Origin: an uncultured Candidatus Saccharibacteria bacterium
Lineage (GTDB): Bacteria > Patescibacteriota > CAZHWT01
DNA length: 64,000 nt
NCBI GenBank assembly: GCA_964554805.1
Contig: CAZKPX010000002.1
Coordinates: forward strand, 178,080-242,079
Reading direction: 5' to 3'
A program made the translations under genes and the position numbers. Every line of letters begins with the position of its first letter. Within the stretch, counting starts at the first letter, position 1. The notes beneath the pieces are model-generated. The model worked only from the letters and a program-made list of their open reading frames with translations. It ran no database searches and was not told where the DNA came from. Shown here one piece after another: positions 6,736 to 52,890 of the stretch.

Positions 6736-9105
6736 CTACCCTTTCATTTTGATTGTTTTACCTTGACGTACTAGCTCATACTCAGCGTCAGCAACTAAGC
6801 GACGAGTGGTGTTAATGGCTTCGGGGCTGACAGAGATGGAGCTAATTCCCCACTCGACTAACTTGCGAGTCATTTCAGGATAGACACTGGGTGCTTGCCC
6901 GCATATAGAAGACATAATACCATGCTCGGCGGCTCCTTTGACAACTTTTTGGAGGGCCCACATGACCGCCTCGTTTCGCTCATCGAACTGAGCAGCAACT
7001 TTGGGGTTATGCCGGTCGAGTCCCAAGATCAGTTGGGTCAAATCATTGGAGCCAATGGACAGGCCATCGATACCGACACCAATAAACTGATCGAGCATGA
7101 TGACATTGGCCGGCACTTCGACCATCATAAAGAGCTTAAAAGAGCCTCCTCTGTGCAAGCCGATTTGACTCATATGATGCTTGATTTCAACCAGCTCGCT
7201 TGGAGTGCGGACAAAGGGCACCATTAGCCATAGGTTTTTATGATATTGACGAACTTTTTTGACAGCTTGCAGCTCGAGCAATAGCTGTTGTCCGTCATTG
7301 CTGTGACGATATGCTCCGCGATAGCCAAGAGCAGGGTTGTCCTCATGGCCTTCATATTTCTGTCCGTGTTCTAGGTTGGCCAGCTGGTTGGCAGTCAGAT
7401 CACCAAGTCGGTATATCACTGGACGATTATCGAAAGGTTTGACCACTTCCATAATGCCTTCGTAGAGCGCGTCGACAAATACCTCAGATTTGCCTTTGTC
7501 TATAAAGTGTTGCGGGTGCTGACCGATGTGTTGGAAAAGGTATTCGGCTCGGAGCAATCCCACGCCATCGACATTTTTAGCTGCGACTTCGGCGGCTTGG
7601 CTTGGCTCGGAAATATTAACCATGACTTTTGTAGCAGTTTTCAGCTCAGAGTCTTGATCCGAGATGGCTTGAGTGACTTGACTGGAGTGTTTGATATGAG
7701 CATTGGCCGAAGTAACTGCCGCGCTCGAAGATTTAATAGCCAAGTCGCCTTGATAGACAGCGCCGGAGTTGCCATCGACGGTAATTGTTTCACCATTCTT
7801 TAACATTTTGGTGGCGCTGGTAGTTCCCAGAACGGCTGGAATGCCGAGTTCCCGAGCCACCATGGCTGCATTGGCAGTGCGTCCACCTTCGTTGCTGATT
7901 ATGGCAGATGGCAGCAGGCCGCTCGGAGTGAAGTTGAGTTCGGCCTCGTCTAAGACGATAATTGTATTTGGTTTTAGTTTTGATAAATCGTCGCCTGACT
8001 TAACTATTTTTACATGGCCTGCGGCGACACCGGGAGATGCCGGCAAACCGGTCAGTAGTGGGCTGGAGTTGGGGGAGGCTGCCGTTGAATGAGCAACACT
8101 GATGATATGCGCGCTGGATTGAGGATCTACGGGATTCGAGATAAGAGCATCTGACTGAACGATGTACAATGTGTGATCCGCATAGGCCCACTCTACTTGC
8201 TGCGCTTGTCCAAACTGCTCCTCAAGTCGGACTGTTAAGAGGGCTAGCTCAGTAATAAGTCTATCGGCTAGCTTTTGTTTGCGCTGCCAGGCTGCTGATA
8301 CCGGAATTCTAATATTTGCTTTGGTTAGCTCTGAAGTGGGGGCGTGAGTGGTTTTGGCTAATTGCCATTCTTGTCGAACTATATCTTTGCTCGTAATAAC
8401 CCAACCTTGCTTGCTGATTTGGTAATGATCGGGAGTTAGTTGACCATTAGCTATTGGCTCACCGAGTCCCCAGATAGCTTCGATTGTAATGCTGTTTGAG
8501 TCTAGGGTTAAAGGATTGATACTAAAACTGACGCCGGACATTTCAGCATCAACCATTCTTTGAATAATAACTCCACAACCATCGGGTATGGCATCGAGAT
8601 TTTTTTGGAGTCGGTAGTAGACAGCTTTGGCTTCGAATAAACTGGCCCAACAGTGCTTAACGGCTGCAAGCAGTTGTTTGTGGCCAATTATATTGAGATA
8701 TGAGGTGCCGGTGTTGTTGATGGAGCTATATTTGTCGTCCAAAATTGATTGGCGGACTGCTACGTGGACATCTTTGGTAGAAAGTTGTTGGTAGTTATGC
8801 AGGAGCTGTTGCTCGATTACGGCAGGTAGCTCGGCATGCAGAATTAACTGCTGGGCTACAGTTGCAGCATCCTGGAGCTTTTTGCTGTTATTAACATTGG
8901 CTTTTTGTAATACTTTGGGCAGTTTTTGATCAAGGTTGGTCTCTTGAAGAAATTGTTGAAAGACCTGACTTGAAATGACAAAGCCGTTGGGAATTGGCAT
9001 GCCAAGCTCAGTTAATCGTCCCAGATTGGCGGCTTTGCTGCCGATGTGTGGTGAAAGCTGAGGGTTGATTTGTGAAAGCCAGATAATGTGCTGTGATGAA
9101 GACAT
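6736..9105 (-). CDS. ppsA: Phosphoenolpyruvate synthase / pyruvate, water dikinase family
   Basis: It has an N-terminal PEP/pyruvate-binding (PPDK_N) domain and a central phospho-His mobile domain (GGRTANAAMVARELGIPAVLGT). The C-terminal PEP-utilizing TIM barrel and the 789-aa length fit ppsA. Confidence 0.75.
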   Translation of the reverse strand: MSSSQHIIWLSQINPQLSPHIGSKAANLGRLTELGMPIPNGFVISSQVFQQFLQETNLDQKLPKVLQKANVNNSKKLQDAATVAQQLILHAELPAVIEQQLLHNYQQLSTKDVHVAVRQSILDDKYSSINNTGTSYLNIIGHKQLLAAVKHCWASLFEAKAVYYRLQKNLDAIPDGCGVIIQRMVDAEMSGVSFSINPLTLDSNSITIEAIWGLGEPIANGQLTPDHYQISKQGWVITSKDIVRQEWQLAKTTHAPTSELTKANIRIPVSAAWQRKQKLADRLITELALLTVRLEEQFGQAQQVEWAYADHTLYIVQSDALISNPVDPQSSAHIISVAHSTAASPNSSPLLTGLPASPGVAAGHVKIVKSGDDLSKLKPNTIIVLDEAELNFTPSGLLPSAIISNEGGRTANAAMVARELGIPAVLGTTSATKMLKNGETITVDGNSGAVYQGDLAIKSSSAAVTSANAHIKHSSQVTQAISDQDSELKTATKVMVNISEPSQAAEVAAKNVDGVGLLRAEYLFQHIGQHPQHFIDKGKSEVFVDALYEGIMEVVKPFDNRPVIYRLGDLTANQLANLEHGQKYEGHEDNPALGYRGAYRHSNDGQQLLLELQAVKKVRQYHKNLWLMVPFVRTPSELVEIKHHMSQIGLHRGGSFKLFMMVEVPANVIMLDQFIGVGIDGLSIGSNDLTQLILGLDRHNPKVAAQFDERNEAVMWALQKVVKGAAEHGIMSSICGQAPSVYPEMTRKLVEWGISSISVSPEAINTTRRLVADAEYELVRQGKTIKMKG

Positions 9106-21250: not shown

Positions 21251-23836
21251 TTAGTCGACTTTGAATTCAATCTGCTGATTATCTGCTAATTGGGCTGCAA
21301 CCGATTGGCCTGGTCCAATTTTCTGATCAATTATATCCATGGCTAACGGATCAAGGAGATGGCTTTGAATAACGCGCCGCAAGGGTCGAGCTCCATAGAT
21401 TGGGTCATAGCCTATCTTGGCCAGATACTCTTTGACTTGTGGGCTGATAGCGATATGAATATCGCGCTCGCGTAGTTGCTGTGATATTTGCTCAAGCTGC
21501 AGTTCGGTGATGGTATCCATATCCTCCGGTCTTAGGCGCTGAAAGACGATAATATCATCTAGGCGATTGACAAATTCTGGCTTAAAGTGCTGCCTGACCA
21601 CCGTCATAACCTGAGACGCTAATTGCTGTGTGGTATCACCTTGCCATTCTTGAATAATTTGACTCCCAAGATTAGAAGTCATGATAATTATGGTATTGCT
21701 GAAATTAACGACACGTCCTTGGCCATCTGTCAATCTTCCATCATCCAGCACTTGGAGGAGAGTATTGAATACTTCGGGATGGGCTTTTTCAACCTCGTCA
21801 AACAAGATAACGGCATAGGGTCGGCGACGAACACTTTCAGTGAGCTGCCCTCCTTGGTCATAGCCAACATATCCCGGAGGAGCTCCGATCAATCTAGAAA
21901 CTGCGTGCGCCTCCATATACTCGCTCATATCAATTCGAACCATGGCGTGCCGATCATTGAATAAAACTTGAGCTAAGGCTTTGGCTAACTCAGTTTTACC
22001 GACTCCTGTGGGTCCTAGGAACATAAATGACCCAAGTGGACGATTGGCAGCTGACAGGCCTGCCCGGGCCCTTCGAATGGCGTTGGCAACTGTTTTGACT
22101 GCATCGGCCTGCCCCACCACTCTTGATTGCAGCTCAGCCTCTAAATTAACTAATCGATGGCTCTCTTGCTCAATCAGCCGTGACACAGGAATGCCTGTCC
22201 ATTTATGAATAACCTTGGCTATATCTTCTTCGGTAACTTCTTGACGCAACAATCGACTCCCGGAATCCTGATTGGCTATCTTTTGGTTCAACTCTTCAAT
22301 TTGGTTGGTTAATACAGGGATTTTGCCATACCGAATCTCTGCAGCTACTGCCAAATCTCCTTGCCGCTCTGCCTGCTCCTCAGCAAAACGCAATTGATCC
22401 TGCTCTTCTTGCAGCTTTTGACTCTGGTCAATCAAATCCTTTTCTTGTCGCCATTGCTGTTCTAAGGCGCGCTTTTGCTCTGTTAGATTGGCAATATCCT
22501 GTTTAACATTTTCCAGTCGTGTCTTGGCCTGATTATCCTTTTCTGTTTTTAGAGCTTCTTGCTCCACCTCAAGGCGACGCACTCGACGAGTCAAGTTATC
22601 AAGCTCGGCCGGCATACTATCAATATCCATTTTTAGGCTTGAGGTTGCCTCGTCGATGAGATCGATAGCCTTGTCAGGCAAAAAGCGCTCCGGTATATAT
22701 CTACTGGATAATTTCACTGCAGCCACCAAGGCACTGTCCGTTATTCGAACTCCATGGTGAAGTTCATACTTCTCTTTTAAGCCCCTAAGAATAGTAATTG
22801 CATCTTCTACGGATGGTTCGCCAACATAGACTGGTTGGAAGCGGCGCTCTAAGGCGGCATCTTTTTCGAGGTGCTGGCGATATTCATTGAGGGTTGTAGC
22901 TCCGATTAAATGAAGCTTGCCCCTTGCCAGGAGCGGCTTGAGCATGTTGGCTGCATCAACCGCTCCTTCACTGGCGCCTGCTCCGACAATGGTATGAAGC
23001 TCGTCAATAAATAGTATTACTTGACCTTGAGCATCTTCCACTTCTTTCAAGACTGCCTTAAACCGTTCTTCAAATTCTCCTCGAAATTTTGCTCCAGCCA
23101 GCAATGAACCAATTTCAAGGGATATGAGTTTTTTATTGCGCAGCGTATCTGGCACGTCGCCGCTAATAATTCTTTGGGCGAGCCCCTCGACAATGGCAGT
23201 CTTACCTACTCCAGGCTCACCTATTAAGACGGGATTGTTTTTGGTTCTTCGTGTTAGAACCTGCATGGTTCGCCGTATCTCATCGTCTCGACCAACGACG
23301 GGGTCCAGTTTGCCGTCATTGGCTAGGGTGGTCAAATCTTGCCCATATTTCTGCAGAGCATTGTGAGTGTCCTCTGGGTTTGGGGTTGTAACATTCATTG
23401 GTCGAATTCCTTTCATCTGTTCTAAGAGTGAAGCCGAGGTGAGGAAGAATTGTTGTAAAAGACGAGTTAAGGCTGGGCAGTCAGCCAAACCAAGCAGCAG
23501 ATGCTCGGTGCTAAGATAGCTATCGCCCATGCTTGTCATGTAATTTTGAGCTGCTGTTACAACTGTCTGAATATCGGGCGAAGAAACAGGCATAGCCGCC
23601 TGGGCGGTCTTAACAGTTGGCAGTTTAGCCAATTCTAAATCAAGCTTTGCTATGAGACTTTGCCTATCGACCGACAAGCTATTCAGCAAAGGTTGTACGA
23701 CTGTACCATCTTGTTGCACTACGCTGTAAAGCAGGTGAGCAGCTTCAAGCTGCCCGTGGTGTAACCGTTGGGCTAGCTGAAGGCTATTTTGCAGGGCTTG
23801 AGCTGACTTGTGAGTAAATTGTTCAGGGCTAATCAT
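21251..23836 (-). CDS. clpB: ATP-dependent chaperone/disaggregase ClpB
   Basis: Two AAA+ modules ([15 protein letters not shown]; [15 protein letters not shown]) flank the long coiled-coil M-domain. Length is 861 aa. A TTGACA-18-TATAGT promoter ends 5 nt before the ATG. Confidence 0.95.
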
Positions 23837-23854
23837 GACTAAACTATACGGTAA

Positions 23855-23881
23855 TTGTCAGTCGTATGTCAAGAGTGCCAA
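23855..23881. promoter_or_regulatory. CIRCE-like imperfect dyad (TTGTCAGTC-N9-GAGTGCCAA) overlapping the clpB -35
   Basis: It matches the CIRCE consensus TTAGCACTC-N9-GAGTGCTAA at 14 of 18 positions with the exact 9-nt spacer. It sits immediately upstream of the heat-shock gene clpB. Confidence 0.35.
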
Positions 23882-23944
23882 TATATTGTAGGAGAAGTAA
23901 TAGGAAGAAGAAAAATTTCTGTTGGTTCTTGTTATATCTTCAGT

Positions 23945-23995
23945 TTATACCAAAAACACACCCAGCTCTTAGGGCGAAACCGGGAGAGCTGGGTG
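23945..23995 (-). terminator. Rho-independent terminator (minus strand) in the CAP-clpB intergenic region
   Basis: Perfect 11-bp stem CACCCAGCTCT/AGAGCTGGGTG with a 15-nt loop. On the minus strand it is followed by TGTTTTTGG. Confidence 0.6.
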
Positions 23996-24150
23996 AGGGA
24001 ATGTTACTTAGAGCAAAGAATCGAATGTGTTGTTCACCTGTATGTCCTAAGTTGACTGTGCAACATGGAGCATAAAAGCGCACATTATTCCTTATTTTAT
24101 TCTATTTTTACAAGGTTCTCTAAGGTACTCCATTGACCAAGCTACGCTTG

Positions 24151-24172
24151 GTGGATATAGGATATGGGATAT
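24151..24172. repeat. Triple heptad direct repeat (GGATATA-GGATATG-GGATATG), copy A
   Basis: Tandem 7-bp repeats. The same architecture recurs at 26731-26751 and 28125-28145, each about 40 nt from a conserved box. Confidence 0.7.
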
Positions 24173-24264
24173 GGAAAATCGGAACACTATATTCAATATC
24201 TGATATTCTTTTATCCGTCTATATAGCGTATCAAGCAATCATGCAGATTGCAATAATTAGATTT

Positions 24265-24969
24265 CTATTCTCCGAACTGTACACCGAATTCTTGCACCCA
24301 AAAATTAGGAGAACCAGCCTTAAAGCCAACTCCGAGTTCTTTGGCTTTGTCGCTCAAAATATTGGCCCGATGAGATTCAGAATTCATCCAAGCAGCCACG
24401 ACTTCTTCAACTGATTGCTGGCCTTGACCTATATTCTCCCCCATCCAGCGCCAGTTAGTGTATCCCGCCTGTTCGTTTCGGTGTTTAAAGGTTTGACCAT
24501 CCGGGCTGGTATGGCTAAAAAATTTTTGGGATGACATCTGTTGGGCATATGCTTGGGCGGATTTTGACAGCTGCTGATTGAGCGATAGACTGCCCAGCTG
24601 ATTTTGACGCCGGATCGCATTGACCCTACTAAGCATTTCCTCGGCAAACTTAGGATTATTGGTGGCTGGGGGAGGGTTTTGAGGTTGATCGATCGGTTTT
24701 ACGGTGAGCTGTGCAGGCTGGGTATTTTGGGCTGCAGGCGGAGCCTCAGTCGTCGTCTTCTGTAAAGGCTCCAAAATGAAGCTCGGTATAAAACTTTGCA
24801 GTAGTGGGCTCAGGGTTAAGCCGGTTGTTTGCTGAGGCTGCACAGATGACTCTTCTTTGCTTGATAAGAACCACCAGGCATGCGTAGGGCTGGCGGTGGA
24901 CAATAGGAATAAAAGAATCAAGCTAAAACAAACGGTCTTAGCTGCCCAGTTGCGAATAGATATGGACAT
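24265..24969 (-). CDS. Secreted CAP/SCP/PR-1 domain protein
   Basis: A signal/TM N-terminus and a Pro/Gln-rich linker are followed by a C-terminal CAP domain (GHYTQVVW-like GYTNWRWMGENIGQG...SESHRANIL). Confidence 0.75.
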   Translation of the reverse strand: MSISIRNWAAKTVCFSLILLFLLSTASPTHAWWFLSSKEESSVQPQQTTGLTLSPLLQSFIPSFILEPLQKTTTEAPPAAQNTQPAQLTVKPIDQPQNPPPATNNPKFAEEMLSRVNAIRRQNQLGSLSLNQQLSKSAQAYAQQMSSQKFFSHTSPDGQTFKHRNEQAGYTNWRWMGENIGQGQQSVEEVVAAWMNSESHRANILSDKAKELGVGFKAGSPNFWVQEFGVQFGE

Positions 24970-26699: not shown

Positions 26700-26730
26700 G
26701 GCTTAAGTATAACAGCCAACTGCGCTGGCG

Positions 26731-26751
26731 GATATCGTATATCGGATATCG
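26731..26751. repeat. Triple heptad direct repeat (GATATCG-TATATCG-GATATCG), copy B
   Basis: Tandem 7-bp repeats about 20 nt upstream (on the minus strand) of the xseA -10 element. Confidence 0.7.
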
Positions 26752-26792
26752 AAAAAGTGCCAGAGCCCAGAATTAAACGTCTTCCATATTCT

Positions 26793-26819
26793 TATCCGTG
26801 TCTCTATATTCGCCTTGCT
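26793..26819. repeat. Conserved 27-nt intergenic box, copy B (TATCCGTGTCTCTATATTCGCCTTGCT)
   Basis: 24 of 27 positions are identical to the box at 28188-28214, with a partial match at 24212-24228. It lies immediately 3' of the oxidoreductase stop and is followed by the small hairpin GCCTTGC-TAA-GCAAGGC. Confidence 0.7.
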
Positions 26820-26827
26820 AAGCAAGG

Positions 26828-28084: not shown

Positions 28085-28124
28085 AGGTTAATGATACTAC
28101 ATCCAATCAGCCACTTGCAGTGGT

Positions 28125-28145
28125 GAATATTGAATATGGGATATT
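28125..28145. repeat. Triple heptad direct repeat (GAATATT-GAATATG-GGATATT), copy C
   Basis: Tandem 7-bp repeats about 20 nt upstream (on the minus strand) of the oxidoreductase -10 element. Confidence 0.7.
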
Positions 28146-28187
28146 GGTGGATTCTGGATTTAGATTCTGGTTATTTACGATACCCTA

Positions 28188-28214
28188 TATCCGCGTCTCT
28201 ATGTTCGCTTTGCT
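28188..28214. repeat. Conserved 27-nt intergenic box, copy C (TATCCGCGTCTCTATGTTCGCTTTGCT)
   Basis: A near-identical copy of the box at 26793-26819. It lies immediately 3' of the CvpA-CAP gene stop. Confidence 0.7.
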
Positions 28215-28226
28215 TGTCAAATCTGG

Positions 28227-52805: not shown

Positions 52806-52890
52806 GCGTGACGGGCGACGAGCGACCGGCGACAAGCTAAGACGGATCAATGCATTCGAACTCGTCGCTCGTCGCAGGTCGCACGTTTTG
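52806..52890 (+). terminator. Long GC-rich imperfect hairpin + TTTT downstream of the ABC transporter gene
   Basis: Arms GCGTGACGGGCGACGAGCGAC / GTCGCTCGTCGCAGGTCGCACG with a ~37-nt loop, then GTTTTG. Confidence 0.55.

Follow-up and report, generated by a model that had tools for sequence, protein, structure and literature searches.

A conserved structured RNA element between a CAP-domain gene and clpB in a Patescibacteria-like genome

Several small RNAs of enterobacteria, including CpxQ, SroC, and DapZ, are derived from 3′ UTRs or share the terminator of a protein-coding gene, and the RsaE/RoxS small RNAs of Firmicutes carry C-rich motifs. Patescibacteria (CPR) have tiny, gene-dense genomes that have discarded most non-essential DNA, and to our knowledge almost nothing is known about RNA-based regulation in these organisms. 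The RNA element described here resembles CpxQ, SroC, and DapZ in lying directly downstream of a same-strand gene and ending at the intrinsic terminator of that gene, in having blocks that are more constrained than the surrounding intergenic DNA, and in being co-inherited with its parent gene. It differs from them in having no sequence or structure homology, in its Patescibacteria-like host, and in conserving a long-range closing helix and a terminator loop, not a single-stranded seed. As in RsaE/RoxS, short conserved C-rich stretches occur in a linker (UUCCCUCA) and a hairpin loop (GCCC) beside an intrinsic terminator, and by analogy these motifs could pair with G-rich ribosome-binding sites. 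However, the architecture is not that of RsaE/RoxS, the AUUCC part of the C-rich sequence is paired in helix P1, and no target was found among the gene starts of the window (the whole 64 kb stretch of DNA that was analysed). Terminator-type riboswitches and attenuators share with the element their covarying stems, conserved junction, variable peripheral hairpin, and a terminator immediately 3′, whereas the element is located at the 3′ end of a gene, has no competing antiterminator, and matches no Rfam family.

The element lies within a run of minus-strand genes comprising a CvpA-CAP gene (29195-28227), a Pyr_redox oxidoreductase gene (28084-26828), xseA (26699-25404), xseB (25393-25118), a CAP-domain gene encoding 234 aa (24969-24265; hereafter the CAP gene), and clpB (23836-21251). 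The 428 nt between the CAP gene and clpB make a long gap for the window, in which most intergenic spacers are 10-150 nt. An identical CAP protein is present in assemblies of SRR16798008, SRR16798009, and SRR16797978. The same gene order with a 240-316-nt gap was seen again in several lineages among the loci around the closest ClpB and CAP homologs. The nearest relative of the window ClpB was only 68% identical, and the named matches, from Patescibacteria, Paceibacterota, Kerfeldbacteria, and Saccharimonadales, were all at ≤62% identity. Judging from the best of these named matches, the host is most probably Patescibacteria/CPR-like. We conclude that the CAP-clpB gap holds a conserved structured RNA of ~185 nt on the minus strand that is predicted to be non-coding, and whose expression, 5′ end, and stability we infer. 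A tRNA/tmRNA scan gave no match.

The RNA core, as delimited by a covariance model, 11-sequence alignments, and RNAalifold, extends from the 5′ block (A)UGGAGUACC to the end of the U tract (24133-23950, ~184 nt, minus strand, as are all parts given below). The window matched the covariance model at 23950-24137 with 153.5 bits, and the minimum free energy (MFE) of the core had a z-score of -2.9. Helix P1 joins GGAGU (24127-24131) to AUUCC (23998-24002), after which comes the C-rich linker CUCA. It is a weak helix, with 88-89% of cells pairing, two invariant G-C pairs, a fourth pair that is G.U or U.U, and two-sided changes in none of its pairs. Helix P2 joins CUUAGAG (24118-24124) to CUCUAAG (24007-24013), with 98.6% of cells pairing, and in alignment A2 its 3′ strand falls within the most conserved block, GAUYCUUUGCUCUAAGUAAnAUUCCCUC. 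MFE folds and the alignment place P3 and a variable inner hairpin domain at 24015-24093. The base of P3 in the window consists of AAGGAAU (24087-24093) paired with AUUCUUU (24015-24021); in the window and in homolog L103, A-U takes the place of G-C at this helix base (GGGAU with AUCCU), which is less regular, with 80% of cells pairing. The inner hairpin domain varies in both length and sequence among homologs, and by eye its interior measures roughly 50-110 nt.

Downstream of the linker, an intrinsic terminator hairpin occupies 23959-23995, with arms at 23959-23969 and 23985-23995 forming a perfect 11-bp stem (seven G-C pairs, -23 kcal/mol) around the 15-nt loop CCCGGUUUCGCCCUA (23970-23984). 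This G+C-rich stem-loop is directly followed by the U tract UGUUUUUGG (23950-23958), as in intrinsic terminators generally, and U/G-rich tails follow the hairpin in the homologs. Perfect inverted repeats of at least 11 bp with a loop of ≤20 nt occurred at six places in the window vs 0.2 in shuffled sequence. Across homologs the terminator stem is 9-11 bp long and its sequence differs in nearly every lineage, unlike the loop, which keeps GGUNUNGCCC in all 11 sequences, with the positions GGU.U.GCCC identical in 11/11. Just 5′ of the core, folding predicted a small hairpin, P0 (CCAAGC-GUA-GCUUGG, 24137-24151), and hairpins of other sequence were seen by eye at this position in L085, L090, L095, L100, L084, and L099. 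Overall, the comparison of homologs shows an architecture in which a predicted long-range P1/P2 helix encloses a variable hairpin domain and is followed by a C-rich linker and then by a covarying terminator stem with an invariant loop.

We recovered 11 distinct versions of the element (the window, L097, L084, L099, L085, L090, L095, L100, L101, L092, and L103). The flanking ClpB and CAP proteins of the relatives were only 44-68% identical to those of the window, and the other intergenic DNA around the RNA could not be aligned among them. A 5′ block, (A)UGGAKUACCYUARAG, was near-unchanged across homologs, as was a 3′ block, GAUCCUUUGCUYURRGUAAnAUUCCCUC, with the hairpin and U tract following. 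The covariance model was trained on ten sequences, with L103 left out, and gave the untrained L103 a score of 124.7 bits. In 0.91 Mb of sequence outside the homologs, scores reached at most 13.3 bits; this sequence included the rest of the window and, as negative controls, 80 unrelated clpB loci from among the matches listed in the ClpB search of genome contigs (50-61% identity). A metagenome scan with a strict pattern of 3′ block plus loop yielded one extra homolog, L095, which also has a CAP gene upstream. The single match in a scan of viral contigs fell inside a 2538-aa ORF and was rejected as a chance match.

The whole window had no match at gathering thresholds to the 4227 covariance models of Rfam 15. 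Rfam catalogues many described sRNA families and holds no meaningful match for the RNA at E ≤ 10: across 23840-24270 the best scores at that limit were 18 bits, far below the cut-offs of the families concerned, a Dictyostelium snoRNA and the 3′ UTR of a plant virus. Nothing on the RNA element was found in the literature that we searched. The element is a genuine structured RNA, narrowly distributed and not catalogued before, and falls within the broad class of terminator-ended small or 3′-UTR RNAs.

Compensatory change was quantified in alignment A2, a plain MAFFT alignment fitted to no structure, and in a later alignment, A4, with 11 homologs across the two. On A2, 93.4% of cells paired vs ≤55.5% when the 3′ partners were slid by 1-3 columns (93-94% vs ≤56% across alignments), and P1 and P2 alone gave 94.2% vs ≤55% slid. 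Ten or 11 pairs change on both sides yet stay paired, and 0/500 column shuffles reached the observed pairing or covariation. In P2, two-sided changes affect three of the seven pairs (two of them U-A to C-G, the other G-C to A-U), giving the variants CUCAGAG/CUCUGAG in L090, CCUAAAG/CUUUAGG in L084, L099, and L092, and CCUAGAG/CUCUAGG in L101. In the terminator stem, six of nine pairs change on both sides and are still paired. P1 and the apical stem lack covariation evidence because their pairs are invariant or imperfect. The sample behind these values is small, at 11 sequences of which four or five are closely related, and the changes in P2 amount to ~3 independent compensatory events. RNAalifold, given no structure, returned the same P1, P2, terminator, and apical pairs, and when the sequences were folded singly by MFE, the terminator appeared in 11/11 and the closing helices P1/P2 in most of them. 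Four helices (P1, P3, the terminator, and the apical stem) contain G.U pairs, which would be A.C mismatches if the other strand were transcribed, placing the RNA on the strand of the CAP gene. The compensatory changes thus exceed the controls, as expected of a conserved structured RNA.

Position relative to neighboring genes was equally consistent. In 11/11 loci the RNA lies 40-140 nt downstream of an orthologous CAP gene on the same strand, whereas clpB is the next gene on that strand in 8/11 and no co-directional gene follows in 3/11. In L092, clpB is convergent with the CAP gene and keeps its own CIRCE promoter elsewhere, while the RNA follows the CAP gene on the CAP strand. L099 and L101 have no clpB beside the CAP gene and a convergent gene next to it, and the RNA is still found with CAP. 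The RNA is therefore inherited with the CAP gene and not with clpB. All 11 loci share the position expected of a 3′-UTR-derived sRNA, that is, on the same strand after the coding sequence, with a shared terminator and co-inheritance.

The element at 24133-23950 is thus probably a conserved structured non-coding RNA domain of ~185 nt that forms the terminator-ended 3′ end of the CAP transcription unit. RNA polymerase would arrive at the element from the CAP gene, and in some genomes additional transcripts may start at a weak promoter just upstream of it. Stopping at the terminator would set free a stable RNA, which would be the structured 3′ UTR of the CAP mRNA or else a 3′-derived small RNA generated by cleavage between P0 and P1. 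In addition, the terminator would insulate the separately controlled, predicted leaderless promoter of clpB, ~75 nt further on. Two sequences are invariant, GUAAnAUUCCCUC at the P1/P2 junction and linker and GGUNUNGCCC in the loop of the terminator. A plain terminator would not be this conserved, which suggests that the two sequences form a recognition surface for a protein or a base-pairing partner. Such a surface would make the element a riboregulator and not a passive terminator. The complement of the loop occurred nowhere else in the window above chance, and a search for duplexes with the 52 gene starts of the window yielded only outliers of ~3 sd without orthologous support.

Alternatively, the RNA could be an independent sRNA gene with its own promoter, starting at or near A24133 of AUGGAGUACC and ending at the terminator, in which case the heptad repeats found upstream in the window would be an activator or repressor site replacing the -35 element. 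We regard this as possible and, on the evidence at hand, unlikely. In its favor, TTACAA-17-TAATAT ends 7 nt short of the 5′-block AUG in L090, and in L097 a consensus TACACT lies 13 nt before P1; good -10 elements in this position suit an independent gene better than a CAP 3′ UTR. The window itself has TAGCUU 5 nt before A24133. Of the 52 gene starts surveyed across the window, many had a -10 element (TAyAcT, often TGn-extended) 6 nt 5′ of the ATG and no Shine-Dalgarno sequence (SD). From this -10/ATG geometry, leaderless transcription appears to be common in the host genome, extended -10 promoters included, and a -10 element 6 nt before the first transcribed A would fit that pattern. Heptad copies B and C, furthermore, directly precede the -10 elements of xseA and the Pyr_redox gene, and the RNA of L092 is preceded by a heptad array of another kind (AGAAARN x5).

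Against an independent gene, upstream -10 elements were by eye credible only in L090 and L097 and weak or absent in the other homologs, most of which (e.g. L085, L095, and L101) showed no consistently spaced -10 with A2 and T6. In L084 and L099, the space directly after the CAP stop codon is filled by a 9-bp hairpin. The CCATATC heptad module was present in 0/10 of the RNA-bearing relatives. The heptads of copies B and C are 18 or 25 nt from the -10 element, whereas those of copy A would be 8 nt from it, and the heptads of copy A form a palindrome. The 3′ end of the CAP transcription unit remains the reading that we prefer.

A cis-regulatory leader of clpB, either a riboswitch-like attenuator or an RNA thermometer, would control read-through or translation of the downstream gene. 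The same-strand position of clpB in 8/11 loci suits this idea, as does the sequence of a structured domain and then a terminator, which is found in many riboswitches. We nonetheless consider it very unlikely. The RNA stays with the CAP gene where clpB has moved or is absent, and so it is not a clpB leader: in L092 it faces the 3′ end of the convergent clpB, and a convergent gene comes next in L099 and L101. A search for antiterminators found best alternative pairings of -6 to -11 kcal/mol vs -18 to -25 kcal/mol for the terminator, and these pairings were not conserved; terminator stems also vary while P2 is constant. With three of 11 loci lacking a co-directional gene and no competing pairing, the locus does not behave as a riboswitch or attenuator, and no Rfam family matched it.

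The upstream region of clpB argues in the same direction. Between the terminator and the gene lies a consensus promoter, with TTGACA at 23867-23872, an 18-nt spacer, and TATAGT at 23843-23848, 6 nt from the ATG at 23836 (23843-23881 with the CIRCE-like element, minus strand). Every relative checked has TTGACA or TTTACA, a 17-18 nt spacer, and TATAGT, TACACT, or TATACT ending 6-7 nt before the ATG. This promoter/ATG geometry predicts that clpB is a leaderless gene, with no SD/AUG to mask. Such a gene, transcribed from a promoter of its own, leaves no room for the upstream RNA to act as a thermometer or attenuator. ROSE- or fourU-type thermometers accordingly find no counterpart here, where a terminator and a separate promoter precede the leaderless clpB. 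The promoter in the window is overlapped by a CIRCE-like element, TTGGCACTC-N9-GACTGACAA (23881-23855), and that of L085 carries the CIRCE-like TTAGCACTC-N9-GAGTGATAA. Like the CIRCE/HrcA operator, inverted repeats of the form TTAGCACTC-N9-GAGTG(A/C)TAA lie over the clpB -35 region in the window and in relatives. The window differs in its degenerate right half-site (GACTGACAA), and the element is separate from the RNA. For local gene control we infer a leaderless clpB with a CIRCE-like element lying over its promoter and with the terminator of the RNA insulating that promoter.

The coding potential of the element was also considered. According to the sequence-only reading that preceded this analysis, the region contained no ORF of 60 aa or more and very short ORFs such as MCAFMLHVAQST. 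The first statement was correct for the minus strand, where the longest ORFs between 24150 and 23945 were 47 and 48 aa; the plus strand has mechanical ORFs of 66, 69, and 93 aa, on which that reading was silent. The plus-strand ORFs were not conserved in relatives, and opposite-strand ORFs were mere translations of the conserved block (13 to 52 aa). The micro-ORF MCAFMLHVAQST was indeed present at 24085-24047, and had a counterpart in no relative. That reading had also offered a micro-peptide as an alternative, and either this ORF or a leaderless one, MEYLREPCKNRIK (24133-24092), might in principle encode it. The 5′ block opens with AUG in 6/10 homologs checked and with UUG in one, reading M-(E/D)-Y-(L/P)-R-E, and leaderless translation appears to be common in the host genome. 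Even so, we find a micro-peptide scarcely credible. There is no start codon at the 5′ block in L084 (CUG), L092 (AAG), or L099 (UAG), and the peptides of 9-23 aa are completely different past six residues; the ORFs vary among homologs in presence, length, and sequence. Changes between Leu and Pro codons are compensated ~110 nt away in the 3′ strand of P2, which indicates constraint on the RNA and not on coding, and no frame through the 3′ block is kept, since the terminator stems differ in length by 1 nt. Neither a conserved in-frame start nor a coding pattern of substitutions was observed in the homologs, and the RNA element is predicted to be non-coding.

It is likewise most improbable that the locus is only a CAP terminator plus neutral spacer with its conservation due to shared ancestry and not function, since, although the sample is small and from one clade and a terminator alone would explain the hairpin and U tract, the blocks and loop are nearly invariant beside flanking proteins of 44-68% identity and otherwise unalignable intergenic DNA, compensatory changes link blocks roughly 50-110 nt apart, and an invariant loop on a changing stem is the opposite of a plain terminator.

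An RNA domain kept with compensatory changes beside a CAP gene at ~50% protein identity implies selection for RNA function. We tentatively raise the further idea, which is rather doubtful as it stands, that the element represents an undescribed riboregulator family of one Patescibacteria (CPR) lineage, coupled to a secreted CAP/SCP-domain protein, with GGUNUNGCCC and GUAAnAUUCCCUC as a protein or small-ligand site or as an mRNA seed. If true, it would, as far as we know, rank with the earliest functional small RNA classes to be described in these reduced, host-dependent bacteria. The alignment and covariance model provide a concrete RNA that can be searched for in CPR metagenomes and metatranscriptomes, and evidence of its expression and of a partner, in bacteria that have been little studied, would add to its significance.

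The heptad module upstream of the RNA has a separate history. The degenerate heptad 21-mer, with 0.01 chance occurrences expected in the window, occurs in only three copies in 64 kb. Copy A (CCATATC, CCATATC, CTATATC) occupies 24174-24153 of the minus strand, and copies B (26750-26730) and C (28145-28125) end 30 and 40 nt before the ATGs of xseA and the Pyr_redox gene, respectively. A long imperfect palindrome has copy A as its 3′ arm; its 5′ arm (GGAUAAAAGAAUAUCAGAUAUUGAA, 24192-24216, minus strand) was recognized from the fold and from the strain variant L003, in which this arm consists of inverted heptads (GGATATA GAATATC GGATATT GAATATA). The palindrome folded with z = -2.1 in the window and z = -3.8 in L003; copies B and C folded no better than shuffled sequence. 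In L084, the spacers matching the sites of copies B and C are only 44-57 nt, which marks the ~100-nt heptad module as a recent, lineage-specific insertion.

The sequence-only reading had located this array and its strand, the spacing of copies B and C, and the terminator with its 11-bp stem and T tract accurately, and it had predicted a non-coding RNA of about the size and on the strand found here. The conservation and covariation in related genomes that it proposed as a check were found in the 11 sequences. It reached this prediction, however, by taking the heptad module as the promoter of the RNA and of the genes behind copies B and C, which is an interpretation and not an observation. All ten relatives that carry the RNA lack the module, and copy A is palindromic with no -10 (TAyAcT) at a suitable distance, only the weak TAGCUU before P1. 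xseA and the Pyr_redox gene have their own -10 elements 6 to 9 nt before a leaderless ATG, with an extended TGnTAyAcT before xseA. The earlier reading thus came to the right place by reasoning that fails.

The heptad module could be either a regulator site or a REP-like palindrome, and its presence is no evidence that the RNA has a promoter. It resembles REP/BIME palindromes in being ~100 nt long and occupying three consecutive intergenic regions between co-directional genes, in that copy A is palindromic, and in that the module varies between strains and is missing from relatives. It differs from them in having three clustered copies only, of which B and C do not fold above shuffles, and in consisting of 7-nt direct repeats that abut the -10 elements of leaderless genes, where a regulator-binding site is possible. 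Hairpins of the P0 type also come after heptad copies B and C.

A heptad module of about 100–130 nt occupied each of three consecutive intergenic regions on the minus strand of the window, upstream of the conserved structured RNA that lies between the CAP-domain gene and clpB (copy A, 24134-24264) and of xseA and the Pyr_redox gene (26700-26827 and 28085-28226). Each copy ran in the order TTGAYA..ATAGAGACRCGGATA, then the CCATATC-type heptads, then a hairpin of the form CCA-N7-9-TGG. The equivalent spacers in the related locus L084 were only 44–57 nt long, and the strain variant of this region, L003, had sequence differences inside the module. The module may be a regulator site or a REP-like repeat. 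The relative L092 carried a heptad tandem array (AGAAAGT AGAAAAC AGAAAAT AGAAAGT AGAAATG; L092 6018-6050, strand of the RNA) 60–95 nt upstream of its own RNA copy, and the sequence differed from that of the window heptads. Thus, a 7-nt periodicity before the RNA recurs while its sequence is not shared, and the presence of such a repeat in both L092 and the window may be coincidence.

Heptad-like units also formed a long plus-strand hairpin at 52806-52886 in the window, with the arms GCGACGA GCGACCG GCGACAA and TCGTCGC TCGTCGC AGGTCGC followed by GUUUUG. This hairpin was flanked by two plus-strand genes, had a promoter (TTGACT-17-GATAAT) downstream, and is probably a terminator.

Downstream of the RNA in the window, a CIRCE-like inverted repeat overlapped the clpB promoter (23843-23881, minus strand), and the same overlap was found in the relatives L085 (9897-9945), L090 (2958-3000), and L092 (2975-3000). 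The repeat was TTAGCACTC-N9-GAGTGATAA in L085 and degenerate in the window (TTGGCACTC-N9-GACTGACAA). The -35 hexamer of the promoter fell within the N9 spacer of the repeat. This arrangement suggests putative HrcA-type heat-shock control over clpB in this CPR-like lineage.

Three mechanically called plus-strand ORFs of 66, 69, and 93 aa (window 23855-24075 and 24133-24414) overlapped the RNA and the CAP gene 3' end, antisense to the conserved element, and a search for their conservation in relatives found none. One further contig, L102, was identical to L101, a locus with the RNA, as far as GATGGAG, where the 5' block of the RNA begins, and diverged completely past that point (L102 4395-4456). 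Either the assembly of L102 is chimeric, or L102 is a variant without the RNA.

A conserved small ORF of ~34 aa, mostly uncalled as a gene, was located between the PGA_cap and CAP genes in L085 (about 8650-8790), L090, L092, L099, and L103, within a 335-nt gap 5' of the CAP gene; it was absent from the equivalent site in the window. The hydrophobic product (MSSALLHKKALVALGIGIATGFAMQLYLILTHAV in L085) probably forms a single transmembrane helix, and the ORF had its own promoter (TTGACG...-10) and appears leaderless.

Many gene starts in the window had no Shine-Dalgarno sequence but a -10 element (TATACT, TACACT, or TATAGT) whose end lay 6 nt upstream of the ATG (e.g., 1084, 5074, 16720, 23836, 26699, 29195, 36460, and 59719); in many cases TGn stood in front of this element. 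Other genes had a clear GGAG-type Shine-Dalgarno sequence. Judging from these starts, this genome appears to make common use of extended -10 promoters that yield leaderless mRNAs.
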